Positions 1,705 to 41,715 of a stretch of DNA of 64,000 bases are shown here, piece by piece. The position numbers were made by a program, and so were the translations under genes. Source of the stretch: a virus. The notes under the pieces were generated by a model. It made no database searches and had not been told where the DNA came from. It saw nothing but the letters and a program-made list of their open reading frames with translations. Where the stretch lies: IMG/VR virus record IMGVR_UViG_3300042934_001067, positions 1-64,000 of that record; one strand, written 5' to 3'. The first letter of the stretch is position 1; each line of letters begins with the position of its first letter.

Positions 1705-2129
1705 GTCGTGACCGTCCGGAGCACCTTGACCGTCGCGCCGGACTGGGTCTTGAGCGCGATCGTCACCTTGAGCGTGTCGTACTGCAGCTCCGTCTCGATC
1801 GACGTCACCTCCTTGACCACGTCCTGGTAGCTGAACCGGGACCGTGACCGTGACAGGGCGTCGGCCGCGATCTGCGCCTGCTGCGCGTCCACGTACTGCT
1901 GGATGACCCGCACGATCTCCGACCGCACGAGCAGCTCCAGCTCGGCCGTCAGCGGCTCCCCGATGTGCGAGGCCAGCACTGAGCCGAACTCCGGGTGATA
2001 CGGGTCGTGCCCGAACGGCTCGGCGAGCGCCAGCCCCAGATCCTGCCGGATCCGAGGCGCACCGGTGACCGTCCGGTAGCCGCCCTCACCGAGGGCCAGA
2101 TCCCCGCCAACGAGCGCCAGCGTCTTCAT
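1701..2129 (-). CDS. Baseplate wedge gp25/gpW-like protein
   Basis: MKTLALVGGDLAL...RIRQDLGLAL...DPYHPEFGSVL, gp25-like motif; ATG 2129 with GAGGAGGT RBS. Confidence 0.8.
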   Translation of the reverse strand: MKTLALVGGDLALGEGGYRTVTGAPRIRQDLGLALAEPFGHDPYHPEFGSVLASHIGEPLTAELELLVRSEIVRVIQQYVDAQQAQIAADALSRSRSRFSYQDVVKEVTSIETELQYDTLKVTIALKTQSGATVKVLRTVTT

Positions 2130-2140
2130 GGGCCACCTCC

Positions 2141-2175
2141 TCACCCCTTTCTGGCGCCGATCGGGTCGGAAACAC
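2141..2175 (-). promoter_or_regulatory. Late promoter motif 2 (gp25-like)
   Basis: GTGT-N22-AAGGGGTGA. Confidence 0.65.
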
Positions 2176-2247
2176 GGCCTCCTGGGCAACACAGGGGCGA
2201 CCTTGCGGCAAGATGTGGTCCGACATCCCGCCGAAGGAAGGACTGGA

Positions 2248-3057
2248 GTGAAGACCTCGACACTCCCCAGGCAGCAACTGAGGCGCCTGCTCGCCTCTCA
2301 CGACGAGATCCGGGTCTGGATCAATCAGAACGGCTGCCTCGTCATCGGCGTCGGCATGCTCAAGGGCGGCACCGGCAAGACCACGATGACCATCTTCCTT
2401 GCCCTGTACCTTGCCGTGATGCTGGGCCTCAAGGTCCTCGTCATCGACACCGACGACAACAGCCAGACGGTGGACGAGTGGTACAAGATTCGCGAGAACC
2501 GCGAGGACCTGGAAGGAAACCCGGCCCCGGAGAAGGTCCCCTTCGACCTCGTCACCTACGACGCCAAGAACAAGGCCGAGGACGCACCCGAGCTGGACGA
2601 CGTCATCGACAGCTTCCGAGACCAGTTCGACGTCATCATCGTGGACTCGGGCGGCGCCGGGAAGGAGGCGTACTGGGAGCTGTGCCAGAAGGCCCACATG
2701 GTTCTCCTGCCGTTCGCGCCGTCCGGGTTCGAGTGGAACCGCATCGCGCCGACAGCCAAGACGGCCGCGCGAGGAGGCAAGGCCAACGACAACCGGCTGA
2801 AGGTCTTCGTGTGCATGGTGAAGTGCACCGGCCGGAACACCTTGGCGGCCGACGCCCGTCCCGTGGTTGAGGCCCTCATGGCGACGAAGATCGACGACGA
2901 AATCCGGAAGAAGATCGACGTCGCCTTCATGGACAAGGAGTTCGAGATCAGCGACTCGCCGGACTACCCCCGCGCTTGGGACGAGACTCCGAAGCGCACC
3001 CACCTGGAGGAGATGGGGCTCCTGTTCCGCCACGCCATGAAGGAGGTCATCGGCTGA
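2248..3057 (+). CDS. parA: ParA-family partition ATPase
   Basis: Deviant Walker A KGGTGKTT, VLVIDTD, DVIIVDSG Walker B; GTG 2248 after AGGAAGGA. Confidence 0.9.
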   Translation: MKTSTLPRQQLRRLLASHDEIRVWINQNGCLVIGVGMLKGGTGKTTMTIFLALYLAVMLGLKVLVIDTDDNSQTVDEWYKIRENREDLEGNPAPEKVPFDLVTYDAKNKAEDAPELDDVIDSFRDQFDVIIVDSGGAGKEAYWELCQKAHMVLLPFAPSGFEWNRIAPTAKTAARGGKANDNRLKVFVCMVKCTGRNTLAADARPVVEALMATKIDDEIRKKIDVAFMDKEFEISDSPDYPRAWDETPKRTHLEEMGLLFRHAMKEVIG

Positions 3058-11841: not shown

Positions 11842-12345
11842 TCACCGCAGCCGGGTGGAGTGGGTGTACGCGCAGACCACGGGCTTGGCGACGTCCAGGC
11901 CGCCGACCGTCAGGGTGTCGCCGTCCATGATGTCGACGATCGTGACGTTGTGGTAGATCTTGCCGCGCCAGCGCGAGGGGTTGGACTCGGTGCCCGGCGG
12001 CTTGATGATCGTCTGCGCGGTGACGTAGTTCGCGGTCCGGGCCAGACGGTCGAAGATCTCGACGATGTTGTTCGTCCCGGCCATCCCGGCCATCTGCTCC
12101 CAGTGCGCCTGGTTCCACAGCTCCTGGATCGTGAGCTGCAGCGTGGCGCCGCCCAGGACCCGGGACGTCGCGATCTCCACCGGCGTCCGGGCACCGAGGG
12201 GCTGGATGAAGGCGTACGGCTGGCCCTTGTCCGACCAGGCGCGCTGCCCGGCGTCCTCCACCGAGTTGAGGAACGCGATCGGCTTACCGGCATAGACGAA
12301 AGTGGAGTATCCACTTCCCGTTACGCGGACCTTTCCTGCAGGCAC
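11842..12345 (-). CDS. Tail tube protein
   Basis: About 167 aa downstream of sheath; beta-rich, IQPLG..PVEI, LQLTIQELW; GTG 12345. Confidence 0.75.
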   Translation of the reverse strand: MPAGKVRVTGSGYSTFVYAGKPIAFLNSVEDAGQRAWSDKGQPYAFIQPLGARTPVEIATSRVLGGATLQLTIQELWNQAHWEQMAGMAGTNNIVEIFDRLARTANYVTAQTIIKPPGTESNPSRWRGKIYHNVTIVDIMDGDTLTVGGLDVAKPVVCAYTHSTRLR

Positions 12346-15384: not shown

Positions 15385-15419
15385 TCACCCCTTGAGGGCG
15401 CGATGGGAGGGGCGAACAG
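15385..15419 (-). promoter_or_regulatory. Late promoter motif 6
   Basis: CTGT-N22-AAGGGGTGA. Confidence 0.75.
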
Positions 15420-16871: not shown

Positions 16872-16907
16872 TCACCCCTTGGAGGGCGACGGAGGAGGCG
16901 CGGACAG
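16872..16907 (-). promoter_or_regulatory. Late promoter motif 7
   Basis: CTGT-N23-AAGGGGTGA. Confidence 0.75.
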
Positions 16908-22284: not shown

Positions 22285-22319
22285 TCACCCCTTGAGGAGG
22301 CCAGGTGCACCCCAGACAG
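22285..22319 (-). promoter_or_regulatory. Late promoter motif 9
   Basis: CTGT-N22-AAGGGGTGA. Confidence 0.75.
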
Positions 22320-26204: not shown

Positions 26205-29200
26205 TCAGCTCCAGGCGGGCTTTTCGACAGCAGGTGCCTTGGAGTAGTTCGAGTTGATCTCGCCCGGGGTGAGGAGCTGGGCGCGCTGGCAGCTGGGGCA
26301 GACGTCGCCGGAGACGATGCCGTCGCTGGCGCCGCCTGGGTTGCCCATGTCCTGGGTCTGGGGCGGGGTGGCGTCGGCGCCGAAGCCGCAGCTCGGGCAG
26401 AACAGGTCGGGGAGGCCGTCGCCGGGCTGGCCCTGCATGGGGGCGGGGGCCATGCCGTAGGGGGAGTCGGCGTCGTCCTGGTCGAGCTTCTCGTCGGGGT
26501 TGCCCGGCTCGTCCGGCCGGTAGGGCATGTCGGGGCCGGGGGTGAACGGGTCGCCGGTACGGTCCTTGCCCCAGCCGGGCAGCTCGCGGGGGCCGACCTG
26601 GCCTCCCTGCTCCGGGTCGGCCATGTCCTGCTGCTGGACGGGGACGTTGCCCTCGGGGTCGATCTCGTTGGGCTGGATCATGCCGTCGCCGTTGCGGTCG
26701 GACACGGCGGGGCCGTCGGTCTGGGTGCCGTCGAGGGCCTGGTCGCCGTACGGGGACGGTGGGAGGCCGTTGTCGTCGAGCTGGTCGGGGTCGATCATCT
26801 GCTGCGACGGGTCCTGCGGGGCGTTCGGGTCCTGCGCCGGGTCGCCGGGCTGGCCGTCCTGCGGCATGGCGGTGCCGTCCCGGTCGACGCGCTGGAGTTC
26901 GCCGTTGTTGTCGACGAGGGCGGGGTCGACGATCTGCTTGCGCAGGTCGTTGGTCTTGGCCTTGTCGAGGTCGGGGTCTCGGAACTGCTCGGGCGGGGAG
27001 ATGAAGCCGCAGACCTGGCAGGCGAGTCCGTCGAAGGTGTCCATGTCGCCGCAGACGGGGCAGTTGGGCTCGCGCAGGGTGTCGACGTCGGCCGGGGCCT
27101 TGATCTCCCCGTATGCCACGGCGCTGATCGTGCCGTCGGCGTTGATGGACGCGGCGTCGGCGAGGCGGGCGACGTGGGAGTTGTTGTCGTCCTTCAGGTG
27201 GGGGGTGTGCTCGCCTGCGAGGTCCCTCCACTGGGTGCGCTGGTTGCGCTGTACGGTCTGGCGGCCCTTGCCGCCCGGCGACTGCTCGTCCTCGGCGGCG
27301 TTCAGGCGCTGGCGGGTCAGCCAGGTGACGGCCTGGACCTCGTGGGGCGGCACGGTGCGGCCTTCCCGGTCGGAGATGACGGCGGCGGCAGTGCGGAAGT
27401 GCTGGGCGGCGTGCTCGTAGTAGTGCCGGTTGCCGGAGGGAAAGCCCCTGGAGGCGTCGGCGTTCAGGCGGCGCCCGGCCGCGACGGACAGTGCGTGCCG
27501 GTCGATGACGACCTTGTCGGAGTGCTCGGGGGGCTTCCCGGCCTGGACGTCCTCGTCGGACTGCGGCTTGTAGCCTGCGTGTTCGATCAGGTGGGCGAAG
27601 TCGGCGGTCTTGGGGCCCTTGAGGACCGTCTGGTGGTCCTCTCCGTTGAGGATGCGCTGGGCGGCGCTGGCGTGGCTGCCCATGACCATCAGGCCCTCGC
27701 CCTTGCCGACGGCCTTCTTCTGGAGGAAGCTCCGGGCCGCGTTGTGCTGGTTGGCCCACCAGTTCTGCTGGGGGCTGTAGGCGGACAGGACACCGGCGCC
27801 CTTGTGCGCGGCCTCCTTGTCGTCCTTGATGTCGGGGTTCAGCTTGGCGATTGCCTTGGCGACGTGGTGCGCGTCCGGGTACCAGCGGGCTCCCTGGGCC
27901 TTCTCCTCCGGCGTGGCCTGGTTCCAGTGGCTCACGATGTGCTCGTGGGACAGCCCGGCCTCTTTGAACCACGGGTGGTCGCCCGGGTTCTCGTACTGCG
28001 GCTTGGCCGCTTCGGCCTGCAGGGCAGCCGCGCGCGGGGGCTGCGCGGTGCTGGGCGTCGGGTACTGAGGCGTCCACATGGCCGCCTCGTCCTGGCGGTG
28101 GGCCTCCTGGTTGAAGGTGCGGCCGTCGTGCGGGACGGGCTCGTGGCCGGTGACGGTGCCGCCCGCGTGCTGCCAGGCCGCGCTGTGGCCGTTGCGGACC
28201 AGCTCCAGGTCCTGGTTGCAGGTACGGCAGAACGGGCTGCCCACGGGCAGGCTGGCGGTCGTGCGGCTGCCGGTTGACTCGATCTTGTCCACTACGGACT
28301 GCGGGATCTTCTCCGGGGTGTCGTAGGAGCCGGAGCGGGCCCGGTGGGTGGTGACGTACCAGCCGTCGTCGTCCTGCTTCAGGCCGACGCCCTCGAAGCG
28401 GGGGTCCTTGCCCGCCGTCTTGTCCTCGTGCTCGTACGACGTTGAGGCCGTCGCCTGGCGGGCGTTGAGGCTGGGCTTGAGCGGCGTGTAGGGCTTGGTC
28501 TTGGTGACGGCGTCCTGGCGGCGCTGGCGGTCGGCGGGGGCGCCGTCCTTGGGGACGGCGGGCGCGGCCGGGGCCGGGTGCTGTGCGGGCTCGGCGAGCT
28601 TGGGGGCGGAGGTGTCCTTGCCGTCCTCGTCGTCGTCCGTCTCCGGGTCGTCGGAGTCGAAGTCGGCCGGGTTGAACTCGGCGGTCTTCGCGGCGGCCAC
28701 GTTCAGGAGGTCGCTGGCGCTGGGGGTGAGGTCGACGGTCACCCTCTGCTGGGCGGCGGCCTTGCCGATGCCGGAGGCGTCCACGCCGAGGAAGTGGGCA
28801 GTCGGGTCGGCCGGGGGTTCGACGAGGACGCTGTTCTCGAAGAAGGACAGGCCGTAGCAGGTCTCGCGGACCAGCTCGCCGATCTTCTTCCCGGAGGCGG
28901 TGCGCCGGTAGATGCGCTTGCCCTTGAGGGCGGGGATGTGGGCGCAGTACTCGGCGGGGGTGCGGGCCTCGTTGCCGCAGGCGGAGCAGACGGAGCGCTC
29001 GACGTCGCAGCCCATGGAGGTCCGGTCGACTTCGCCTGCGAGGATGGCCTTGGCCAGCTTCGGGAAGCGGACGGCGTCGATCTCCATGAGGACCTCGGCC
29101 CAGGTGTCCGGGGTGCCGTCGGGGTTCTTGTCCTGGTGGAGCGCGGCGTCGATGATGACGCCGCGCGCGCGCCGGTGGTTGTCGTTGACGTGGTTCACGA

Positions 29201-29423
29201 AGACGGGCTTGCCGATGAAGGTCCGGTAGGCGGCGGCGATCTCGTCGGCGGGGAATTCGTCGTGGTTGTCGTTCGTGCGTGAACTGATGGCCCTGCTGCG
29301 TACGTACAGGTATCCGGGGCGCGCGTCGTACTGGAAGACCGCGCGGTGGGCCGCCTTGGAGAAGCGCTGCTGCTGGTCGCCGAGCGACGCGGCGATGATC
29401 TGGGCCGTGGCGAACTTCAGCAC
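26205..29423 (-). CDS. Capsid maturation protease polyprotein with inserted HhH DNA-glycosylase-like domain and Zn ribbons
   Basis: N-terminal protease: TNDNHDEF, TFIGKPVFVNH, RTSMGC...CSACG, FFENSVLVEPPADPTA; internal WYPDA...SAYSPQ...GPKTADF...VVIDRHA...QAVTW; C-terminal CxxC motifs. Confidence 0.82.
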   Translation of the reverse strand: MLKFATAQIIAASLGDQQQRFSKAAHRAVFQYDARPGYLYVRSRAISSRTNDNHDEFPADEIAAAYRTFIGKPVFVNHVNDNHRRARGVIIDAALHQDKNPDGTPDTWAEVLMEIDAVRFPKLAKAILAGEVDRTSMGCDVERSVCSACGNEARTPAEYCAHIPALKGKRIYRRTASGKKIGELVRETCYGLSFFENSVLVEPPADPTAHFLGVDASGIGKAAAQQRVTVDLTPSASDLLNVAAAKTAEFNPADFDSDDPETDDDEDGKDTSAPKLAEPAQHPAPAAPAVPKDGAPADRQRRQDAVTKTKPYTPLKPSLNARQATASTSYEHEDKTAGKDPRFEGVGLKQDDDGWYVTTHRARSGSYDTPEKIPQSVVDKIESTGSRTTASLPVGSPFCRTCNQDLELVRNGHSAAWQHAGGTVTGHEPVPHDGRTFNQEAHRQDEAAMWTPQYPTPSTAQPPRAAALQAEAAKPQYENPGDHPWFKEAGLSHEHIVSHWNQATPEEKAQGARWYPDAHHVAKAIAKLNPDIKDDKEAAHKGAGVLSAYSPQQNWWANQHNAARSFLQKKAVGKGEGLMVMGSHASAAQRILNGEDHQTVLKGPKTADFAHLIEHAGYKPQSDEDVQAGKPPEHSDKVVIDRHALSVAAGRRLNADASRGFPSGNRHYYEHAAQHFRTAAAVISDREGRTVPPHEVQAVTWLTRQRLNAAEDEQSPGGKGRQTVQRNQRTQWRDLAGEHTPHLKDDNNSHVARLADAASINADGTISAVAYGEIKAPADVDTLREPNCPVCGDMDTFDGLACQVCGFISPPEQFRDPDLDKAKTNDLRKQIVDPALVDNNGELQRVDRDGTAMPQDGQPGDPAQDPNAPQDPSQQMIDPDQLDDNGLPPSPYGDQALDGTQTDGPAVSDRNGDGMIQPNEIDPEGNVPVQQQDMADPEQGGQVGPRELPGWGKDRTGDPFTPGPDMPYRPDEPGNPDEKLDQDDADSPYGMAPAPMQGQPGDGLPDLFCPSCGFGADATPPQTQDMGNPGGASDGIVSGDVCPSCQRAQLLTPGEINSNYSKAPAVEKPAWS

Positions 29424-29497: not shown

Positions 29498-29822
29498 GAA
29501 GGGTGGCCGGGCGGCAACCTTTCAGGGGGCGGCGGCAACAGTTGGGTGTCTGGGAGGTGTGGAGCTGATGAAGGAGGGCAGCAGGGTGGCGAAGGTAAGG
29601 CAGAATCCCGGCAGCGGTGGCACTGCAAACCGGAGTGCCTTTCTCCCTTTGCCGACAAATAGACTTGAAAAGATTTTGCCGCTACCGTTCAGGCAGAACG
29701 TCGTTGTAGGGGCGGGGGCGTTCCTGAGACCGCATAACACAGAGACCCCGGCCGACCTTCCTGTGGTAGGGAAGTGGGTCGGCCGGGGTCTGCTCCGGTC
29801 TACGTCAGCTGCAGTTGGCGGC

Positions 29823-30233
29823 CTACAGCCGGTCCTCCGGAGGAGAGTCCGACGTGGCGGTCGTCGGACCGGGGATGGCCTTCTTGCGATGCCGACCTTC
29901 GTAGGTCGGGACGGCGGTGGAACCGAGGAGGACTCCTGCCAGCGGCCAGCGCGACTGCACGGCCGTGACGGTGATGTAGTACGCACCACCGAGGATGCCG
30001 GTGAGGCCAGCGGTCAGAAGATTCTCTGCCGTGCCGTCCACCTGGACGCCGTGCGACGCGAGCGTCGCGAGGATGTAACCGACGACGGCCGGGACGACCG
30101 TACGGGGAAGAGCGGGACTGGGCACCTGGACTCCTAGGGCCGGGGACTTCTCGTCCCTTGCCGCCGGAACCCCGAGCCCAGACAGCGACTTTGCGCGGGC
30201 CGACAGTGTCACGGCCGTCTGGGCTGCAGTCAT
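29823..30233 (-). CDS. Holin-like two-TM membrane protein
   Basis: RTVVPAVVGYILATLA...GAYY...RWPLAGVLLGS..PTY resembles actinophage holins; long hairpin ~29743-29791 downstream. Confidence 0.6.
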   Translation of the reverse strand: MTAAQTAVTLSARAKSLSGLGVPAARDEKSPALGVQVPSPALPRTVVPAVVGYILATLASHGVQVDGTAENLLTAGLTGILGGAYYITVTAVQSRWPLAGVLLGSTAVPTYEGRHRKKAIPGPTTATSDSPPEDRL

Positions 30234-30425
30234 GTCGGTCACCTCCCGTCGTCGCCCTGGTTACGTTGCTACGCCGATCGTATGACGCTCAGTACCCATG
30301 GTGTCAACTTAATCGACGCTTGAGACCGATTTAAGGTTCCGGGCGTCCACAATGTCGACGCTCGCGTTAGGATGCCCTGCATGAGTGAAGATTTTTCAAC
30401 ATCACGCCCAAGAGGAGGTGACCCC

Positions 30426-30941
30426 ATGCCGCTCGCCACCAAGATCCGGCGGCTGATCGACCTGAAGCGCCAGCCCGACGGGAGTGAGTACCCCCTAGCT
30501 GAGATCGCTCGGGAGGCCTCAAGGTTGTACCGGACCAAGAAGAATCTTCTGGTGAACGATGAGGGCGGCGAGGAGGAGAAGGACGTCCTCAACCGCCAGT
30601 TCCTCAGCGAGCTGCTGAGCGGGAAGAGGGCGAACCCTCCCTTCGACAAGATCGAGGCGCTGAGTCTCTTCTTCGAGGTGAGCCCCGCGTACTTCGCCAT
30701 CGGCGCCGAGGTGACGGAAGAGACCCGTGCGGCGGAGAACGAAGTCCAACTCATCGCTGATTTGCGGGAGTTGAAGGAAAAACTAGACACAGAGGGTGAC
30801 GAAGCAAGCGAGGAGGGTACCGAGCTGCTCGCCGCCATCTTTCGAGGGGCGAAGGAGGAAGACCCCCAGGCAGTGATGGGTGTGTTCCGTATGACCCTGG
30901 CCGCGATGAAGATGAACTCCAGGAAAGACCGGTCCTCGTAG
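30426..30941 (+). CDS. EspR-like XRE-family transcription regulator
   Basis: LATKIRRL...LSELLSGKRANPPFDKIEALSLFFEVSPAYF parallels EspR LSQLRSGNRTNPS...ALANFFRIKAAYF; AGGAGGT RBS. Confidence 0.85.
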   Translation: MPLATKIRRLIDLKRQPDGSEYPLAEIAREASRLYRTKKNLLVNDEGGEEEKDVLNRQFLSELLSGKRANPPFDKIEALSLFFEVSPAYFAIGAEVTEETRAAENEVQLIADLRELKEKLDTEGDEASEEGTELLAAIFRGAKEEDPQAVMGVFRMTLAAMKMNSRKDRSS

Positions 30942-31012
30942 TCCGGTTGTCAGCCCCTTGCATTACGCTGAGTGGCGTACTTGACCAGGTTAGTGATCAC
31001 AGGGGGCAGTAG

Positions 31013-31552
31013 ATGAGAATGAGGCTGCGCCAGGGCGGTCTGAAGGACGTGTGGAGTCAGGCCCTGTCGGCCCTGGTGCTCCCCGTGTCCCCTTGGACCG
31101 GGGAAGCGCTGCTGCGGGCCTACGTGGAGCAGGTCAGGGGAAATGAACTCGTCCTGAGCCGGGAGTCCTTCATGGCCTCACCGGAGGGACCGAGCGGAGC
31201 ATGGATCCCCCTCGACAGTCTCAAAACGGACATCGTCTGGGCTCATCCCGCCGCGACGGGTGTCCAGCTCGACCACGTTCTGAGGCATGAACTCGGGCAC
31301 ATGGTGAACGGAGACGTGCCCGAGAAGCGCAACCTCCGCGACGCTGTGCGCCTCCTTCAGCTGAGCCACACGTCCGGCCTCGCCCGGGCCGCTCTCGGTG
31401 GCTGGAGGTGCCGTGCCGACAGCACCAGCACCGACAAGCGCGAGCAGAAGGCCGAGGACTTCGGCTACTTCACCGAACGCTGGGTAGCCCGCCACAGCCC
31501 GCGCGGAGCCACGCTGCTCGTATCGAACATGAGGCAGAGCCTCGAACCCTGA
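31013..31552 (+). CDS. ImmA/IrrE-like HEXXH metallopeptidase-fold protein
   Basis: PSGAW...DIVW...HVLRHELGH...REQKAEDF. Confidence 0.75.
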   Translation: MRMRLRQGGLKDVWSQALSALVLPVSPWTGEALLRAYVEQVRGNELVLSRESFMASPEGPSGAWIPLDSLKTDIVWAHPAATGVQLDHVLRHELGHMVNGDVPEKRNLRDAVRLLQLSHTSGLARAALGGWRCRADSTSTDKREQKAEDFGYFTERWVARHSPRGATLLVSNMRQSLEP

Positions 31553-31564
31553 CCTGGAGTACCG

Positions 31565-32848
31565 GTGACCGCCACACCTGATCTGTTCGCCTGGGCCATC
31601 GTGACAGCCCTCACGCTGGAGGTCCTGCGAAGGACCCCCGCCGCGATCCGCAACCCGCGCGGGCGGACCCTGTGGCTGGTCTTCTTCGCCCTCGACGTGT
31701 CCATGGCCCAGAAGATCCAGGGGGTCGGCGACTTCCTCCACCACCTCACCGGCTGGAACGACATCGCCACCCTCGTCAAGCACCTCCTCGGCGTGGCCGC
31801 CGTCGCCGGACTCCTGCACTGGGTCACCAGCGTCGTTCCCGGCCGCGAGGACGGAAGACGCGAACCCCGCTACCGGCGCGCCATCAGCAGCAGGCCACGG
31901 CGCATCGTCACCTGGGCAGCCGTCGCCGTCATCTTCTTCACCTTCTGGCAGTCCCAGCGCCGCCAGGGCAGCGCAGAGGACGGCGACTTCATCTTCGTCC
32001 AGGCGGGCCACTTCTGGGGAAGCCTCCACCTGCTTCTCTTCTACGCTTACTTGATCTTCGGCCTGCTCTGCGCCTCCATGATGTGCGCGGCGGCCTCCCG
32101 CGAGCCCTCCTCCCACGGCGCCTTCAAGTACGGCATGCAGGTCCTGTCCCTCGGATGCATCGTCGGCTCGATGTACGGCTTCGTCCGCTCTGGCTACCTG
32201 ATCGCCCGCCTCTTCAAGAAGCCCTTCCTCGGCGGCGAAGTCTTCGTGGACACCGCGTCCAACTTCTGCCTCGCCGGATGCATCCTCCTCGTCCTGGCAG
32301 GCGCGAACGCACCGAAGTGGGAACGCATGGACCAGCGGGTGAGAGCCCACGGTGCCGTCAACGACCTCTGGCCCATGTGGAACCGGCTGACCACCGCCGT
32401 CCCCTCGGTCATCTACGAGGACGCCGACGCAAAGCCCCGCCAGCGCACGCTCCCCGCACCCCTCGTCCCTCTGGCCGGGCGCCTGCACGACTTCTGGAAC
32501 TGGAAGCGCCTCGACGTCCGCCTCAGCAGGCGGATCACCGAAATCTGCGACGTCTCCATGCACCTGAGCCCGTACGTCCCTCCGCACCTTTACGAGCGCG
32601 TCGGGACAGTCGTCCAGGACCTCGGCCTGCCCCGGCACACGGTGCCCGCCTACCTCCTGCGGACCGCCATGAAGCGCAAGGCGGCCGGAGAGCCGCCGTT
32701 CGCCGAGCGACCGGACGCGGCCATCCTCGTGGCCGACACGGAACTCCTCGGCACCACGGCGAAGTTCCTCCCCGTCGGCAAGGCCATGAGCGACAACGAC
32801 CTGATGGACCGACTGGACCGCAGCATCAAGGCCGGAGTGAACGCGTGA
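31565..32848 (+). CDS. MAB_1171c-like multi-TM membrane protein with cytoplasmic C-domain
   Basis: About seven hydrophobic helices followed by LWPMWNRLTTAVPSV...RRITEICD motif; usual neighbour of XRE plus HEXXH genes in actinomycetes (from memory). Confidence 0.75.
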   Translation: MTATPDLFAWAIVTALTLEVLRRTPAAIRNPRGRTLWLVFFALDVSMAQKIQGVGDFLHHLTGWNDIATLVKHLLGVAAVAGLLHWVTSVVPGREDGRREPRYRRAISSRPRRIVTWAAVAVIFFTFWQSQRRQGSAEDGDFIFVQAGHFWGSLHLLLFYAYLIFGLLCASMMCAAASREPSSHGAFKYGMQVLSLGCIVGSMYGFVRSGYLIARLFKKPFLGGEVFVDTASNFCLAGCILLVLAGANAPKWERMDQRVRAHGAVNDLWPMWNRLTTAVPSVIYEDADAKPRQRTLPAPLVPLAGRLHDFWNWKRLDVRLSRRITEICDVSMHLSPYVPPHLYERVGTVVQDLGLPRHTVPAYLLRTAMKRKAAGEPPFAERPDAAILVADTELLGTTAKFLPVGKAMSDNDLMDRLDRSIKAGVNA

Positions 32849-33417
32849 CCCGCATCAAGGCCGCACGACTCCTCACGGACCTCGTCGACCCCAAGAACGT
32901 CATCATCGTCCTGTGCCTGCTCATAGGCGCGCACTACGGCTGGAGCGGCATCGGCTGGAGCACGGCCGCAATCTTCTTCTGCGCGGTCGTCCCGATCGTT
33001 TTCATCGTCCTCACCAGTGACACCCGGACCTTCGCCGACCGGCACGTCCCCGAGCGTGCCCGCCGGATGGTCGTCATCCCTGTCATCGTGCTGTCGGTGC
33101 TGACCTGCCTGACCCTCATGGTCGTCGGCGGCGCCCCGGCGCCGATCCTGTCCATGGTCGGCGCCATGCTGGCCACGCTGGCCGTCCTGTGGCCCGTCAC
33201 CAAGTACACCAAGATCAGCTTCCACACGGCCGTCCTCACCGGCGCCCTGGCTATGCTCGGACTGCTCTACGGCCCCTGGTGGATACTCTCCGCAGCCCTC
33301 GTGCCGCTGGTCGCCTGGTCCCGCGCCCAGCTCCAGGACCACACCCCGGTCCAGACCGTAGCCGGAGCAGTCCTCGGCGCCGTCGTCGCCGGACCCGTCT
33401 TCCTCCTCGGCCTGTAA
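32845..33417 (+). CDS. PAP2-like membrane phosphatase
   Basis: GTGA overlap; KISFHTA and WSRAQLQDHTPVQTVAG correspond to PAP2 C2/C3 motifs; multiple TMs. Confidence 0.75.
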   Translation: MTRIKAARLLTDLVDPKNVIIVLCLLIGAHYGWSGIGWSTAAIFFCAVVPIVFIVLTSDTRTFADRHVPERARRMVVIPVIVLSVLTCLTLMVVGGAPAPILSMVGAMLATLAVLWPVTKYTKISFHTAVLTGALAMLGLLYGPWWILSAALVPLVAWSRAQLQDHTPVQTVAGAVLGAVVAGPVFLLGL

Positions 33418-33421
33418 CGAC

Positions 33422-33448
33422 GCCGGGCCCCTCAAAAAGGGGCCCGGC
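33422..33448. terminator. Bidirectional terminator
   Basis: GCCGGGCCCCT-CAAAA-AGGGGCCCGGC between convergent genes. Confidence 0.7.
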
Positions 33449-33470
33449 ACTTCAACAGTTCGATGCTTTT

Positions 33471-33896
33471 TCAGACGACCAGCATACGCAGCGCCATCTG
33501 CATCTCGCCCGGCGTCAGCTCACCGCCCGCCGCGATCTTCTCCCGCAACTGCGCCTGCTCCCGCTCCTCGTCCGTCATCCCGTAGTACGGGTCCGGCCGG
33601 TGCTCGGCCAGCACCCGGCGCACCGCCGCCAGGTCGACCGACGACGGCGTGACGTAGAAGATGACCGGGTCCTGCGCGCTCACCGGCCCCGGCAGGCCGT
33701 CCTCGTCGATGGGAATGACAGCAGCCACCTGGACGGACGGACCGAGCGCCTCGGTCACCTCCACCTGCAGCTGGCCGACCGCGACCTCGCGGTTCCAGGT
33801 GAAACGGTGGCTGTCCCCCCGGAAGGGGTCCACCGGGTCGCCGCTGCCGTTCTCCTCCGGCGTCGGCTCCACGTCGTGCTTGTTCAGGCCAGCCAT
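33471..33896 (-). CDS. Hypothetical late protein
   Basis: 141 aa overlapping upstream gene end, GGAGG RBS. Confidence 0.65.
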   Translation of the reverse strand: MAGLNKHDVEPTPEENGSGDPVDPFRGDSHRFTWNREVAVGQLQVEVTEALGPSVQVAAVIPIDEDGLPGPVSAQDPVIFYVTPSSVDLAAVRRVLAEHRPDPYYGMTDEEREQAQLREKIAAGGELTPGEMQMALRMLVV

Positions 33897-36004
33897 GTGA
33901 TGTCGTCCTCCTGCCCTGCCAGAACCTGCTCCAGGTCGGCGTAGTGAGTCCCCTTGATGTCCAGACGGTCCAGGTTGGCCGCCCGCACCCCCTCACCCTC
34001 ATTGATCAGCGCCTGCTGCTCCGCGAGGGTGAAGTCCTTCAGCGCCTGCCTGCGCAGGCCCGCCGTCATGTACGTCGGCGACAGATCCGCGTCCGCCGAC
34101 GGCACCTGCACCCCGTCCGTGGACGGCAAGGCGGCCTCCGGCTCGTCGTGCAGCAGCGCCTCCGTCCCGCCGGGCTCGAACAGCGAGTGCTCCGCCGCTG
34201 CCGTGTACGACTGCAGCGGCAGCTGCCGGTTCCAGCCCACCGGGTCGGCGCCCGCGAGGGGCCCGGCCGACGCGGGGTTCTCCCACGGCCGCTTCGGCGA
34301 CGTCGACCCCGGCGCCTTCGGCAGCTGGTACGAGGTCCCCGACGGCTCACCGAACGGCGCGTTGGCGTTCGCGGTGTGCTGCAGCGGCTTCTCGAAGTCG
34401 TGCCGCGTCCACTCGTGCTTGTGCGGCTCTTTCCACGACACACCGGCGATGTGCACCGGCTCACCCTCGGAGACCGGCACCTCCGCGTCTTCGTGGTGGT
34501 CGTAGCCGATGACCTCACGGTCGCGCAGGGTGTCGTCGTCGGTTTCGATCGACGCCCGGTCTGGGGTCTTGGCGTGCAGGATCACGTGCGTACCCGTGCG
34601 ACCCGAATCGCTGCTCGTGGGCGTGGGGTGGGAGATGTGTGCGTAGTGGTTGGCCTGCTCCGGGCTGCCCGACCAGTGCATGCCGAGGCCCCTGTCGCCG
34701 CCGGTGACCTCCTTTACCAGGGCGTGCGCACGCTCGGCCGTCGGCTTGGCGGGGTCGTGGACGTGGGAGTGGACATCGTCCGGCAGCGCAACGTTCATAC
34801 CCCGGTGCACGCCGTTGAGGTGCGGGTAGACGCGGTCCCAGTCCGTGCGGTGGGTGTCGTCCTCTTCCTCGTCGTCCCCCAAGGAGTCCCAGGATGCGTT
34901 GACCGTGCGGAGCGCCAGCACGACCTCGGCGCGGTCCTCACCGGCGGCCACGGCCGCGCGAGCGACGATGGAGAGCGGGGAGCTGGGGCTGGTCTGTCGA
35001 GCGGCGGCGGTCGCCGGTGCGAGCCGGTGCTGGTCGGCGTCGATGTCGTAGCGGACGACGACCTTGCGCGGCACCCAGGAGGGCTTGTGCTCGTCCACGT
35101 GGACGTCGCGGCCGAACATGCCCCGGGACTGGGCCTCGTACTGCAGGGCCAGCGCGTGTGAGCACATGCGCCCGGCGAACCGGCTGAAGTCGTCGCTGGC
35201 GCCCCAGTGGTAGGCGCCCCACTTGCAGCCGCAGGACCAGGCGTGTGCGGCCATCTTGCCGGGCATGCGCTGCAGACCGGTCTCGTAGACCTCGTGGTCG
35301 CCCTTGACCTCGGCGTAGACCAGGCCGTCGGAGGCCATGGTGACGCGCAGGCGGCCCTCGGTGCGGATCCGCTTCGCCTTGGCGACGACGTCGCGCCAGG
35401 CGGCCGTGACGTGGAAGCGGAAGTCAGCGTTGGTCGCGGCCGTCACGACCAGGTCGGAGAACAGCTTCGAGGCGTTCTTGGCCCACGGCGGCGCGTCGTC
35501 GTCGCTGTCCGAGTCGTCGTCGCTGTCGTCGGAGTCTGTGGAGTCGTCCCCGTCGTCATGAGAGTCGTCGTCCTCGTCATGCGAGTCGTCAGGGGCGTCG
35601 TCTTGCGAGTCGTCCTCGTCGTCGTTGTCGGCGAAGGGGTTGTCCTTCTTCGCCGCGAACACCTGCTGCATCGCCGGGTCGGGCCGGTCGACGAGGACCT
35701 GGGCCAGCTCGGGGTAGTCGGCCGCCGCCGTCTGCTCCATGGCCTCGGTGGTGATCGGCGCCGGGCGGAGCTGGGACGCCGTGTACCGGCCGCCGCCCAT
35801 GCCCCGGTCCAGGACGACGTGGTACTCCTCGGAGCCCGGGAAGGGGCCGTCCTCGACGTGGCTGACCACGCCGGGCAGGCCGTCCGTGGTGTGCACACGC
35901 TGCTCGGGCTTGTACTCCCAGTAGTCCTCGGAGCGCACGGCCAGCTTCTGCGCGCCCAGTGTCTGGTGCTCCAGGCGCTCGACGCGCTCAAACCTGCCGC
36001 TCAC
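33884..36004 (-). CDS. Internal-head polyprotein: acidic tract, SWIM Zn finger, His-rich ART-like domain
   Basis: GTG 36004; WSCGC...MCSHALA (SWIM); VHRGM...GMHWS...EDAEV (R-S-E ART-like); many x-T-A motifs. Confidence 0.7.
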   Translation of the reverse strand: MSGRFERVERLEHQTLGAQKLAVRSEDYWEYKPEQRVHTTDGLPGVVSHVEDGPFPGSEEYHVVLDRGMGGGRYTASQLRPAPITTEAMEQTAAADYPELAQVLVDRPDPAMQQVFAAKKDNPFADNDDEDDSQDDAPDDSHDEDDDSHDDGDDSTDSDDSDDDSDSDDDAPPWAKNASKLFSDLVVTAATNADFRFHVTAAWRDVVAKAKRIRTEGRLRVTMASDGLVYAEVKGDHEVYETGLQRMPGKMAAHAWSCGCKWGAYHWGASDDFSRFAGRMCSHALALQYEAQSRGMFGRDVHVDEHKPSWVPRKVVVRYDIDADQHRLAPATAAARQTSPSSPLSIVARAAVAAGEDRAEVVLALRTVNASWDSLGDDEEEDDTHRTDWDRVYPHLNGVHRGMNVALPDDVHSHVHDPAKPTAERAHALVKEVTGGDRGLGMHWSGSPEQANHYAHISHPTPTSSDSGRTGTHVILHAKTPDRASIETDDDTLRDREVIGYDHHEDAEVPVSEGEPVHIAGVSWKEPHKHEWTRHDFEKPLQHTANANAPFGEPSGTSYQLPKAPGSTSPKRPWENPASAGPLAGADPVGWNRQLPLQSYTAAAEHSLFEPGGTEALLHDEPEAALPSTDGVQVPSADADLSPTYMTAGLRRQALKDFTLAEQQALINEGEGVRAANLDRLDIKGTHYADLEQVLAGQEDDITWLA

Positions 36005-36032
36005 CGGCGCCTCCCTCAACGACCGTGCCTTC

Positions 36033-36067
36033 TCAGCCCTTGGGGGTGACCGCCGGTGCGGCGACAG
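36033..36067 (-). promoter_or_regulatory. Late promoter motif 13
   Basis: CTGT-N22-AAGGGCTGA. Confidence 0.7.
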
Positions 36068-36075
36068 CAAGGGGG

Positions 36076-36372
36076 TCAGCGGGAGGCGAGGAAGATGGAC
36101 GCCACGGCGACGATCAGGGCGAGGGTCGGGATGATGCCCTTGTAGATGAACTCGCGCAGACCCTGGGCCCGGGAGGAACGATCCTCCCGGGCTGCGCGGC
36201 CCAGTTCGTCCAGCTTCTCCTCGGCCGTACGGATCCGGGCCTCCAGGAGACGCTTCTCCGCGTCGAACTGGTCCTTGGTGACGTAGCTGTCGAGGCGGCT
36301 CTTCACGTCGGTGAGTTCGCGCTCAATCAGGCGCCACAGCTGCCCGACGTTCTCGGGGCTCTCACTGGCCAT
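36076..36372 (-). CDS. Coiled-coil protein with C-terminal TM (lysis accessory)
   Basis: 98 aa, heptad pattern then one TM; downstream of endolysin. Confidence 0.6.
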   Translation of the reverse strand: MASESPENVGQLWRLIERELTDVKSRLDSYVTKDQFDAEKRLLEARIRTAEEKLDELGRAAREDRSSRAQGLREFIYKGIIPTLALIVAVASIFLASR

Positions 36373-36400: not shown

Positions 36401-36436
36401 TCACCCCTTGGCGGTGGCCGCGCACATGCCAGACAG
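36401..36436 (-). promoter_or_regulatory. Late promoter motif 14
   Basis: CTGT-N23-AAGGGGTGA. Confidence 0.7.
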
Positions 36437-36486: not shown

Positions 36487-37596
36487 CTACTTCTTGCGCA
36501 GACCGTTGGCGACCTCGAAGGCGTACTGCCAGGTCTTCGGGCCGGTGAGGCCGTCGGCCGGGCCGAGCGCCGAGAGGTAGTGCTTCTGCAGGGCCTTGAC
36601 CTTGTCGAGGTCCTTCTGCGTCATGGTGTTGGACGGGCCGACGGTGTACTTCGGGCCCCAGTCGCCCTCGTCGAGCCAGGTCTGCAGCTGGCGGGCGTGG
36701 GTGTTCTTCGCACCGAGCTTGAAGTACTGGCGGCCGGGGAACGCCGGGCACTTCGGCTTGGCCTTGGAGGGGAGCGAGCCCAGCAGGTTCTTCAGGCTAC
36801 CCTCGCCGGGCACGCCGTCGGCGGCCTTGCCGGTGTGGCCGAGGCTCTTCTGGTAGTCGGCGTAGTTCAGGGTGTCGGCGTCGGACCACTCGGGGCCGGG
36901 GCCCTCCTGGTAGTGCTTGCCGAAGCCGCGCTTGACGAGGGCCTTGCCGACGGCCGTGACGTGCGCGCCCTCGGCGCCGTAGCCGTACTCCAGGCCGCTG
37001 ATGGTGACCCGGTAACGGGCGGGCGTGGACGGCTTGCCGCCGTCGGTGGACGGCTTGTCCGTCGAGGGCTTCTCGGCGTCCTTGCCCGGCTCCTTCCAGC
37101 CCGGGTCGGCGGAGTCCATGGCGTGGTCGTACTTCGGGTAGCCGTAGCCGTACACGTACGAGTTGTCCCGGCGGTACGACTTCTCGTACACCCCGTCGCC
37201 CTCGGCCGACCCGGAGGTGTTCGTGTTGCCCTCGATTGTCCATATGTGAGTGGAGTTGTACCGGGTGACGAGGCCGGTGTGCGAGCCGCCGTTCTTCCCG
37301 AAGAAGACCTGCGCGCCGACGGCCGGGTACCAGGAGAACCGGCCCCACTGGCGGTAGGTGTTGACGGCGTTGATGCAGCTCGCCGTGACGGGGACGCGCT
37401 TGCGGTCGCCGTTCTTGTGGAAGCCCCAGACGACGAAGGTGCAGCACCACGCCATCCAGTCCGACCACTCCAGGGTCGGCGTCTCGTCGCTGTACTTCTG
37501 GTCGTTGTTCCAGTGGCCGCCTGACCGGCCCTCGTGGTAGCCCTTCTCACCGACGAGCGTCGCTATGACCTTGCTCGCCTTGACCTCGACAGGCAT
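36487..37596 (-). CDS. Endolysin (CHAP domain plus peptidoglycan-binding domains)
   Basis: AWCCTFV...SHTGLV...TIEGNT (CHAP); YQKSLG...ADGVPG and ADGLTGPKTW (PG-binding). Confidence 0.9.
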   Translation of the reverse strand: MPVEVKASKVIATLVGEKGYHEGRSGGHWNNDQKYSDETPTLEWSDWMAWCCTFVVWGFHKNGDRKRVPVTASCINAVNTYRQWGRFSWYPAVGAQVFFGKNGGSHTGLVTRYNSTHIWTIEGNTNTSGSAEGDGVYEKSYRRDNSYVYGYGYPKYDHAMDSADPGWKEPGKDAEKPSTDKPSTDGGKPSTPARYRVTISGLEYGYGAEGAHVTAVGKALVKRGFGKHYQEGPGPEWSDADTLNYADYQKSLGHTGKAADGVPGEGSLKNLLGSLPSKAKPKCPAFPGRQYFKLGAKNTHARQLQTWLDEGDWGPKYTVGPSNTMTQKDLDKVKALQKHYLSALGPADGLTGPKTWQYAFEVANGLRKK

Positions 37597-37622
37597 CTGG
37601 CCCTCCCCAGGGATCGGTTTTC

Positions 37623-37658
37623 TCACCCCTTGGGGAGGGCCCAGACGCTGTGCAACAG
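37623..37658 (-). promoter_or_regulatory. Late promoter motif 15 (endolysin)
   Basis: CTGT-N23-AAGGGGTGA. Confidence 0.7.
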
Positions 37659-41680: not shown

Positions 41681-41715
41681 TCACCCCTTGGGCCCGGGGA
41701 AGCCGCCACAGACAG
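41681..41715 (-). promoter_or_regulatory. Late promoter motif 16 (portal)
   Basis: CTGT-N22-AAGGGGTGA. Confidence 0.75.

Follow-up and report, generated by a model that had tools for sequence, protein, structure and literature searches.

What are a transcription regulator, a protease-like protein and a polytopic membrane protein doing among the head genes of a phage? The question is raised by a locus in the first 64 kb of the IMG/VR virus record IMGVR_UViG_3300042934_001067, a record of 156,276 bp rated complete by CheckV. This whole 64,000-nucleotide stretch, with a GC content of about 69%, is referred to as the window. In its head module, four genes lie in the same direction and code for an EspR-like helix-turn-helix (HTH) regulator, a HEXXH protein, a MAB_1171c/DUF6545 membrane protein and a PAP2-like protein. 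A fifth gene, for a small membrane protein, diverges from them. The first three are called here the triad, and all five the cassette:

30426-30941, plus strand: HTH regulator gene (171 aa)
31013-31552, plus strand: HEXXH gene (179 aa)
31565-32848, plus strand: MAB_1171c/DUF6545 gene (427 aa)
32845-33417, plus strand: PAP2-like gene (190 aa)
29823-30242, minus strand: small membrane-protein gene (139 aa), divergent

The answer we favour, with a probability of roughly 0.45, is that the cassette is a self-contained accessory unit (a moron) carrying a repressor-protease switch gated by a seven-transmembrane (7TM) protein and operating independently of the late programme. The best-supported description is that of a switch of the repressor-protease kind with an obligatory 7TM partner, and the recurring three-gene core is most likely an unstudied membrane-gated genetic switch in actinobacteria. 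No paper explaining the triad or DUF6545 was found; the only publication found on the MAB_1171c family was a transposon screen in Mycobacterium abscessus (PMC8707978).

The genes of the operon are closely spaced, with gaps of 71 nt and 12 nt between the first three and a GTGA overlap between the MAB_1171c and PAP2-like genes, by which the latter appears to be translationally coupled to the former. The regulator start is ATG 30426, which follows a ribosome-binding site (GGAGGTGA, 30414-30421) and aligns with the start codons of the family. A longer reading frame starting at 30372 was rejected since its start falls within the -10 box.

A family profile of the regulator (A5), built from phage and bacterial homologues, matches EspR (3r1f) with an E value of 3.3e-24. 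The match extends from profile position 8 to 154 and over EspR residues 5-132 of 135, and thus includes both the HTH and the C-terminal dimerisation domain. Weaker matches of the same profile are to CapH (7t5u, E 1.4e-4), SinR and DdrO (E 5e-3), and the window protein itself matches phrog_8 (E 7e-6). In regulators of the phage lineage, HTH helices 2 and 3 are separated by an additional acidic segment of 17-37 residues (residues ~38-55 of the window protein), which is missing from EspR and from all bacterial cassette regulators.

The HEXXH protein has no match in Pfam (including PF06114), PHROG, NCBIfam or PADLOC. A profile search of 1.84 billion cluster representatives retrieved 221 clusters, mostly of 160-185 aa. 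In 51 of these, all distant relatives (about 24% mean identity), H92, E93 and H96 never vary, and conservation reaches at least 90% at E144, A147 and E148. The HEXXH zinc motif is thus followed by a Glu within a helix of the E..AE.FA type. Peptidase_M78 (PF06114) is matched by 41 of these 51 relatives at E<=1 (best 2.3e-8), and the link of the window protein to this profile appears to be transitive, via its relatives, and not direct. An AlphaFold2 model (mean pLDDT, a per-residue confidence score, 77.8) was compared with known structures using VIA-align. The best matches were IrrE (3dti, Z 8.3, root-mean-square deviation (rmsd) 3.4 A, 104 aligned residues), PprI (8sln, Z 8.1), CapP (7t5t, Z 7.5) and the COG2856-like domain of M. 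tuberculosis PrpR (6d2s, Z 7.1); the next unrelated zincin was BepA at Z 4.8. Support for the fold is moderate, as Foldseek gave an E value of only 0.057 with the same model, and a PDB sequence search with the HEXXH profile returned nothing meaningful. To judge from its sequence relatives and this model, the protein is a divergent minimal ImmA/IrrE-type peptidase with no appended GAF sensor domain; at 179 aa it is too short for the one found in IrrE and CapP. The two identities given in the first-pass annotation of this DNA are therefore upheld, EspR-like for the regulator by the full-length profile match, and ImmA/IrrE kinship for the HEXXH protein by the fold (Z 8.3-7.5) together with the transitive profile links.

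The third member of the triad belongs to NCBIfam NF042915 (108.4 bits, cut-off 100) and Pfam PF20182 (61.4 bits, cut-off 24.4). In its AlphaFold2 model (pLDDT 83.1), residues ~1-260 form a seven-helix bundle and residues ~260-427 the helical DUF6545 domain. The protein would be oriented N-out/C-in, with the DUF6545 domain in the cytoplasm, and two Arg-rich loops read from the sequence (23-34 and 91-113) fit the cytoplasmic side. All of the top 50 VIA-align matches to the bundle are chains with the fold of G-protein-coupled receptors (GPCRs), with Z between 15.2 and 12.8 and a best rmsd of 4.6 A over 239 residues; no transporter fold occurs among these 50, which does not exclude one. A GPCR-like 7TM fold with a cytoplasmic C-terminal domain, as modelled, is suggestive of a receptor more than of a transporter. 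A PDB sequence search with the MAB_1171c profile gave no match, and a Pfam scan of five C-terminal domains (E<=5) recovered DUF6545 and no other family. Two conserved patches are candidates for functional sites. The QAGHFWGSLHLLLFYAY patch (residues 146-166, window ~32000-32062) lies at the outer end of helix 5, includes two invariant His and is a candidate ligand site. The PGR.DG.REP.YRR patch (residues 92-104, window ~31838-31876) lies in the second cytoplasmic loop and is a candidate docking site.

Among the complex predictions of cassette pairs proposed in the first-pass annotation, that of the protease with the 7TM protein passes the mark, with a score of 0.60 against 0.03 for the best control, a result graded 'weak support' by the tool. 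At least 89% of the contacts are common to the runs, and the pLDDT of the partner is at least 69. Of 80 solved complexes, 58 reach the mark, as do 2 of 110 mismatched pairs; passes at or below 0.60 include 7 of the 80 solved complexes and both passing mismatches; these benchmark counts are only rough here because our own alignments were used.

The triad is by no means confined to phages. NF042915 is found above cut-off in 31 of 301 sampled Actinomycetes genomes (about 1 in 10), often in several copies. Our survey of neighbourhoods, with 6-kb flanks, comprised 22 non-phage loci: 20 contigs from the 301-genome sample and two Streptomyces plasmids, one of the 31 matching genomes (G265, locus L029) having been left out. 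In all 22 loci the MAB_1171c gene is immediately preceded by the HEXXH gene. The next gene upstream is EspR-like and on the same strand in 13 loci; in one locus the EspR-like gene is more distant upstream, and in three it is nearby but on the other strand. A fourth gene of the phage PAP2-like type follows directly in 4 of the 22; other downstream coupled genes encode an amidase (two loci), a FAD-dependent oxidoreductase (one locus) and a second DUF6545 paralogue (one locus), and elsewhere there is none. Genes divergent from the bacterial triads encode LuxR, NlpC/P60 or MmyB-like ligand-binding domain proteins, or are lacking, with no shared theme, and no common 'target gene' emerged. These results agree with an earlier remark that such triads occur in actinomycetes with no function known: the triad is widespread there, HEXXH linkage is complete, the EspR-like gene is usually present and no explanatory paper was found. 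They also answer the question, raised at the same time, of whether the fourth gene is a variable small-molecule enzyme: it is a variable enzyme (PAP2-like, amidase, FAD oxidoreductase) or absent. Since the triad is constant, the fourth gene varies and the small divergent gene occurs only in phages, the conserved unit is the triad, and the fourth gene an exchangeable enzyme.

How would such a unit be controlled? The 183-bp gap between the regulator and small genes (30243-30425) was aligned for seven phages. The promoters, like the terminator hairpins described below, were read from alignments and RNA folds and not from a consensus scan. The elements of the gap are as follows:

30302-30307 (-35 TTGACA, reverse complement) and 30277-30282 (-10 TACGAT, reverse complement), spacer 19, minus strand: small-gene promoter, P_small
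30346-30351 (-35-like TCCACA) and 30368-30373 (-10 TAGGAT), plus strand: operon promoter, P_operon
30313-30319 (TCGACGC) and 30343-30349 (GCGTCCA), separated by N23: inverted repeat of the window
30388-30392 (within ~30385-30395): T-run in the 5' leader of the operon
Arms of the inverted repeat in relative 1: TGAGCCACGC / GCGTGGCTCA
Arms in relative 2: CTTCAGTGACGC / GCGTCACTGAAG
Arms in relative 3: CTTCAGCCACAC / GTGTGGCTGAAG
Arms in relative 4: TTTCCATACA / TGTATGGAAA

Invariant in the alignment are GATCGTATGACGC, GTGTCAACTT, TAGGAT and the leader T-run. Read on the minus strand, GATCGTATGACGC and GTGTCAACTT give TTGACA-N19-TACGAT, the promoter of the small gene, while TAGGAT reads as the Streptomyces-type -10 box of the operon. 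Both divergent promoters thus appear to be host-type and sigma-70-like. The distance from TAGGAT to TGTCAA is exactly 60 nt in every relative aligned. Between the promoters, at a constant position, lies an inverted repeat with a spacer of 21-25 nt. Its arms are 10-12 bp long and perfect in four relatives, and their sequence differs from phage to phage. The right arm overlaps the operon -35 and the left arm abuts that of the small gene. The repeat precedes both transcription starts and is therefore an element of the DNA, not a hairpin in RNA. That the arms vary among relatives and yet stay palindromic suggests an operator, as would be expected if a repressor dimer or tetramer acted on both promoters. 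The regulators of these phages, like the repeat arms, differ from one another in their recognition helices. The T-run (ATTTTTC or TTTTTTC) is conserved about 15-20 nt past the operon -10 despite the 69% GC of the genome.

Control of the operon and the small gene from one shared region, as first proposed from the window alone, is therefore plausible from the gap alignment and the layout of promoters and repeat. The proposal had drawn attention to three GACGCT copies in the gap, and their number and positions (30284, 30315 and 30357) hold: the same strand has just 14 copies in the whole 64 kb, and the expectation for 183 bp, with both strands counted, is about 0.14. They do not form a repeat set, as they fall respectively in the conserved -10 flank of the small gene promoter, in the left repeat arm and in the spacer of the operon promoter.

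These elements can be assembled into a mechanism. The EspR-like protein would bind the inverted repeat across the divergent -35 regions and repress both its own operon and the small gene. The MAB_1171c protein may respond to a cue in the membrane or envelope, probably a molecule of hydrophobic or lipid-like nature. By way of its cytoplasmic loops and the DUF6545 domain it would control the zinc protease, which has lost, or never had, a sensor domain of its own and would have the 7TM protein as its partner. Once activated, the protease would cleave the repressor, as IrrE does DdrO and CapP does CapH, and both promoters would be derepressed. The fourth gene would then be an exchangeable enzymatic output acting on small hydrophobic molecules; in the window this would be a PAP2-type lipid phosphate or pyrophosphate phosphatase which alters lipid-carrier or envelope chemistry in the carrier cell.

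One alternative concerns the role of the 7TM protein. The repressor-protease pair could be the whole switch, responding to a cytoplasmic cue such as DNA damage or single-stranded DNA, with the 7TM and PAP2-like proteins its regulated cargo, that is a transporter or envelope output serving, for example, antibiotic tolerance or superinfection exclusion. The NCBIfam family is named 'putative transporter', and a transposon mutant of MAB_1171c in M. abscessus shows lower cefoxitin and clarithromycin minimum inhibitory concentrations and about half the wild-type biofilm (PMC8707978), a phenotype of antibiotic susceptibility and reduced biofilm which fits an output or transport role equally well. Moreover, CapH/CapP and ImmR/ImmA pairs lie upstream of varied cargo genes (10.1101/2022.04.27.489752), and the enzymes downstream of the triad vary as cargo would. 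Yet cargo normally varies, and the 7TM gene is constant beside the protease in 22 of 22 loci, the variable gene coming only after it. The protease also lacks the GAF-type domain by which CapP and IrrE are thought to sense, and neither the GPCR-like fold, with no transporter fold in the top 50, nor the protease-7TM complex prediction (0.60 against 0.03, at weak support) is what a cargo transporter would lead one to expect. We regard the cargo explanation as unlikely, though the first of the alternatives to be reckoned with. A 7TM protein acting as sensor or gate is favoured over cargo by the constant adjacency, the receptor-like fold and the complex prediction passing the mark.

The family name and the mutant phenotype count against a membrane-gated switch, and several other observations do so too. 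The EspR-like gene was not seen within 6 kb in 5 of the 22 bacterial loci. Taken alone, the window regulator stays below Pfam thresholds, with weak matches to HTH_3 and HTH_19 (E 0.02-0.03), and so does the HEXXH protein, whose sole match is to Peptidase_M48 at E 0.052. The Z of about 8 for the HEXXH model is within the range which VIA-align flags for common arrangements, and the Z of about 15 for the all-helical bundle is near it. The PAP2-like protein scores 20.6 bits with Pfam PAP2 (PF01569), below the cut-off of 27.2. In the control region, the window's own inverted repeat is only 7 bp long with one mismatch, and a consensus promoter scan detected no promoter in the gap. Finally, ImmA of ICEBs1 shows that a protease of small size can do without a membrane partner.

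What might the output be? The fourth protein appears to be a divergent, PAP2-like polytopic membrane protein. Its bacterial and plasmid homologues also score below the Pfam cut-off (24-25.9 bits), and weak profile matches in the PDB (E 0.076-0.9) are to PAP2-type phosphatases, namely glucose-6-phosphatase and phospholipid phosphatase 3. Invariant in phage and bacterial homologues are H67-x6-R74, K123-I-S125-x-H127 and S159-R160-x5-H166-x3-Q170. The canonical PAP2 motifs are K-x6-RP, PSGH and SR-x5-H-x3-D. Compared with these, both catalytic His and both Arg are kept, the Lys of the first motif is replaced by His (with no Pro following the Arg) and the Asp of the third by Gln. One of the four bacterial loci with this gene, L010, is on a 125-kb Streptomyces zaomyceticus plasmid (NZ_CP107934, 5239-6609), where the four-gene cassette is followed by uppS and then by parA. 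uppS encodes a polyprenyl diphosphate synthase, and its position next to the PAP2-like gene would point to a link of the latter with isoprenoid lipid-carrier or envelope chemistry.

The small divergent protein has two moderately hydrophobic helices and a conserved tail, first basic and then acidic (GRHRK...SD.PPEDRL). Its only family match is to phrog_10742, of unknown function (E 1.4e-14); there is no Pfam match even at E<=1 and no tblastn match in deposited phages. Homologues adjoin the triad in every related phage locus and in no bacterial locus, and the small gene would thus be an addition made to the triad in the phage lineage. Its promoter also differs from those of the late genes, which carry a motif, CTGT-N20-24-AAGGGGTGA, present in seven minus-strand copies in the window against 0.01 expected and likely to represent a phage-specific class of late promoter:

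1514-1548, 15385-15419, 16872-16907, 22285-22319, 36401-36436, 37623-37658 and 41681-41715, minus strand: copies of the late motif
36076-36372, minus strand: neighbour of the endolysin gene (98-aa coiled-coil protein with a C-terminal membrane anchor)

Two of the copies precede the endolysin gene (36487-37626) and this neighbour, and none precedes the small gene, exactly the difference noted in the first-pass annotation. A variant copy of the motif may lie upstream of the head-protease gene (~29640-29700, minus strand), in an AT-richer stretch that contains CAAAGGGAGAA.

The same annotation labelled the small protein a holin and proposed a lipid or isoprenoid signal, made or removed by the PAP2 enzyme, which the membrane protein senses and relays through the HEXXH protein to the regulator, so that lysis or lysogeny would be timed via this holin. 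The small gene does share the control region of the operon without a late motif, its product has two hydrophobic helices, and the uppS gene following the PAP2-like gene on the Streptomyces plasmid provides a link to isoprenoid lipids. PF23778, the family of the holin which a relative (L003) encodes at the position of the endolysin neighbour (12033-12326, minus strand), has no match anywhere in this phage. The 98-aa neighbour gives no BLASTP alignment with the L003 holin, and the lysis cassette has apparently undergone a non-orthologous replacement. Since there is no PF23778 match and the 98-aa protein is unrelated to that holin, a lysis-related role for the small protein may remain. The holin label itself has no support, as the protein matches no holin family and its gene lies 6 kb from that of the endolysin, which has its own membrane-anchored neighbour driven by a late promoter. 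Nor can the PAP2-like protein be an obligatory signal maker, since about half of the related phages lack its gene, as do 18 of the 22 bacterial loci. Chromosomal triads, furthermore, have neither phage nor holin nearby, and no homologue of the small gene is found there. Lysis timing through a PAP2-made signal is accordingly judged improbable.

Is the cassette then a part of the phage's own programme or an accessory to it? In the membrane-gated reading it is an accessory, and the structure of the region is consistent with this. The following features bracket or flank it:

29744-29792, minus strand: terminator-type hairpin 3' of the small gene, at the left edge of the block (-41.5 kcal/mol, ~15-bp GC stem, RNA fold)
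33422-33448, both strands: bidirectional terminator hairpin at the right edge (11-bp GC stem, -27.1 and -28.7 kcal/mol by strand, RNA fold)
26205-29423, minus strand: head-protease fusion gene (1072 aa; phrog_18299, DUF7178; several PHROGs matched)
33884-36070: SWIM-finger head protein gene

With a hairpin on either side, the whole 3.7-kb block (29744-33450) is bracketed by terminators, and the right-hand hairpin separates the operon from the convergent late genes (a 141-aa gene and the SWIM gene). A consensus terminator scan detected neither hairpin, as both lack a T-run. The original description of a plus-strand operon inside the head module with its own terminator is thus sustained, for genes at 30426-33417 and a hairpin at 33422-33448. 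In the cluster C phage RoMag, homologues of both flanking head genes (gp91 and gp92) are only 36 bp apart, and the block is therefore an insertion. With its own promoter elements, its terminator hairpins and its insertion relative to a related phage, it has, as read from sequence, the attributes of a moron. Host-type promoters, together with a terminator on each side, would suit a block expressed apart from the late programme, in the carrier state or early in infection. The homologue of the head-protease fusion in pRLB1-9.1, a relative described below, is named in RefSeq a ParB/RepB/Spo0J partition protein, which is probably misleading for a virion protein.

The insertion is also stable. The small gene and the triad are at the same site in 8 of 8 relatives found through the membrane protein. 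An independent search with a backbone protein, that of the adjacent 141-aa gene, gave 7 IMG/VR relatives with full flanks, and all 7 have both there as well. The membrane protein has diverged to 42% identity within the lineage and the block is still kept. The cassette thus appears to be fixed in a lineage of ~150-kb Streptomyces phages. The PAP2-like gene is its one variable member, being present in the window and in loci L002, L005/L070, L006, L007, L076 and L077, and absent from L003, L004, L008/L075, L072/L074 and L078, which retain the rest of the block.

Such fixation could also be expected of a master immunity switch of the ImmR/ImmA type, in which cleavage of the EspR-like repressor by the HEXXH protease triggers the lytic programme. 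Switches of this type control integrative and conjugative elements and temperate phages, and the pair in the cassette is the only XRE plus M78-like one detected in the 156-kb record, with no canonical Peptidase_M78 elsewhere. It is, however, located in the late head block and not beside replication or early genes, and its sole divergent target is a small membrane protein. A search of the 156-kb record for a second operator recovered arm-N21-25-arm patterns only at chance level, which were short and lay in GC-rich coding DNA. The occurrence of the triad in 22 non-phage loci, whose neighbours have no common theme, is hard to reconcile with an immunity switch, which we consider just as improbable as the lysis timer.

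Still less probable is a role in anti-phage defence or addiction, with the cassette working in the manner of XRE-COG2856 toxin-antitoxin-like or abortive-infection systems and one or more of the membrane proteins as a toxic effector; it would shield its carrier against other phages or make the plasmid more stable. XRE-COG2856 pairs are reportedly classed among mobile, toxin-antitoxin-like stress-response systems, and the cassette is carried by a mobile element. The window regulator has weak PADLOC matches to capH (E 0.005) and RmrA, in the range E 0.004-0.005. These HTH matches are the best that any cassette protein gives, and nothing was significant for any of the six proteins tested in PADLOC. 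Moreover, the partner enzymes (amidase, FAD oxidoreductase, PAP2) look metabolic and not toxic, and the cassette is chromosomal in many genomes.

The element which carries the cassette can be placed from its head genes. The major capsid gene has about 74% nucleotide identity to its counterparts in cluster C mycobacteriophages and in Rhodococcus phage E3, and the SWIM-finger head protein retrieves the same phages by tblastn; these matches identify a large myovirus-type actinophage. Region 29500-33600 has no nucleotide match among deposited phages. The closest relatives are ~150-157-kb contigs in many NCBI Streptomyces assemblies, not deposited as phages, among them a contig of Streptomyces sp. 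MH60 whose MAB_1171c protein is 94% identical to that of the window. Two relatives are titled plasmid pRLB1-9.1: NZ_CP041653 (154,158 bp, circular) and NZ_CP191269 (151,251 bp, 'plasmid, complete sequence'). The present record is linear according to its IMG/VR classification. Two further genes are relevant to its lifestyle:

2128-3057 of the window, plus strand: ParA/MipZ-like ATPase (AAA_31 E 5e-10, MipZ 1e-9)
93271-93753 of the genome, plus strand: the single tyrosine recombinase

No serine integrase was found in the virus genome. The plasmid deposits of the relatives, together with the ParA-like ATPase and the one tyrosine recombinase, make a phage-plasmid lifestyle in Streptomyces likely, and suggest one like that of P1. 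The cassette would thus be a host-type sensory circuit held stably inside the head-gene block of large Streptomyces phage-plasmids, and a tractable case for the study of expression in the carrier state.

A membrane-gated switch of this kind would also matter beyond phages. It would give a first functional frame to a family annotated only as 'putative transporter', including the antibiotic-tolerance and biofilm gene of M. abscessus. A more far-reaching version, which we hold to be rather unlikely, is that DUF6545 proteins are bacterial seven-helix receptors which bind a membrane lipid or isoprenoid-phosphate-like ligand and directly activate a sensor-less ImmA-type protease against an EspR-like repressor. 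Streptomyces phage-plasmids would have taken over this route, and in them it would link the state of the envelope to the expression of a small membrane protein affecting lysis, superinfection or induction. If true, this would be a one-step form of transmembrane signalling distinct from two-component systems, anti-sigma cascades and BlaR1. It would occur widely among Actinobacteria, with relatives of EspR, the tuberculosis regulator, taking part in it.

Comparison with known systems shows where the cassette would stand. Like phage morons, it brings a host-type promoter and terminators of its own and separates late genes which are neighbours in related phages. Most morons are single genes and vary among close relatives, whereas the cassette has five genes and its own regulatory circuit and is lineage-fixed despite the divergence of its membrane protein to 42% identity.

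BlaR1/BlaI (MecR1/MecI) of staphylococci follow the same proposed logic, in which a membrane sensor activates a zinc protease, the repressor is removed and a protective enzyme is made. This is an analogy only: in BlaR1 the sensor and protease are one polypeptide of unrelated families (M56 and a penicillin-binding sensor), BlaI is a winged-helix protein, and BlaR1 is far down the Foldseek list (rank 32, E 0.77).

EspR (Rv3849) of M. tuberculosis is homologous to the cassette regulator family over the HTH and C-terminal dimerisation domains. It has been studied as an activator of ESX-1 genes that associates with the nucleoid, and is not known to be controlled by a protease; the phage regulators differ from it further by their acidic HTH insert. 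This homology may bear on the origin of EspR. A literature search gave no paper on homologues of EspR, nor one treating Rv3848 and Rv3850 as remnants of such a cassette.

Closest in composition are ImmR/ImmA, DdrO/IrrE and CapH/CapP. ImmR/ImmA of Bacillus subtilis ICEBs1 and phage phi105 are likewise carried by mobile elements and have divergent promoters, and the gene of an HTH repressor which regulates itself is followed there by that of a small stand-alone protease. They control excision and transfer genes and have no membrane partner, whereas the divergent target of the cassette is one small membrane protein in a late block, and the unit is also found in many chromosomes. DdrO/IrrE (PprI) of Deinococcus and CapH/CapP of the anti-phage system CBASS likewise combine an XRE repressor with a C-terminal dimerisation domain and a COG2856/M78 zinc protease, and the C-terminal domain of CapH has been described as EspR-like (10.1101/2022.04.27.489752). 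In IrrE and CapP the C-terminal part is a GAF-like sensor, and the cues are cytoplasmic (single-stranded DNA, DNA damage); the 179-aa cassette protease is without such a sensor and has instead a 7TM neighbour. These three switches are known to answer cytoplasmic cues, and with a version tied to a 7TM protein the principle would also cover signals arising in the membrane or outside the cell.

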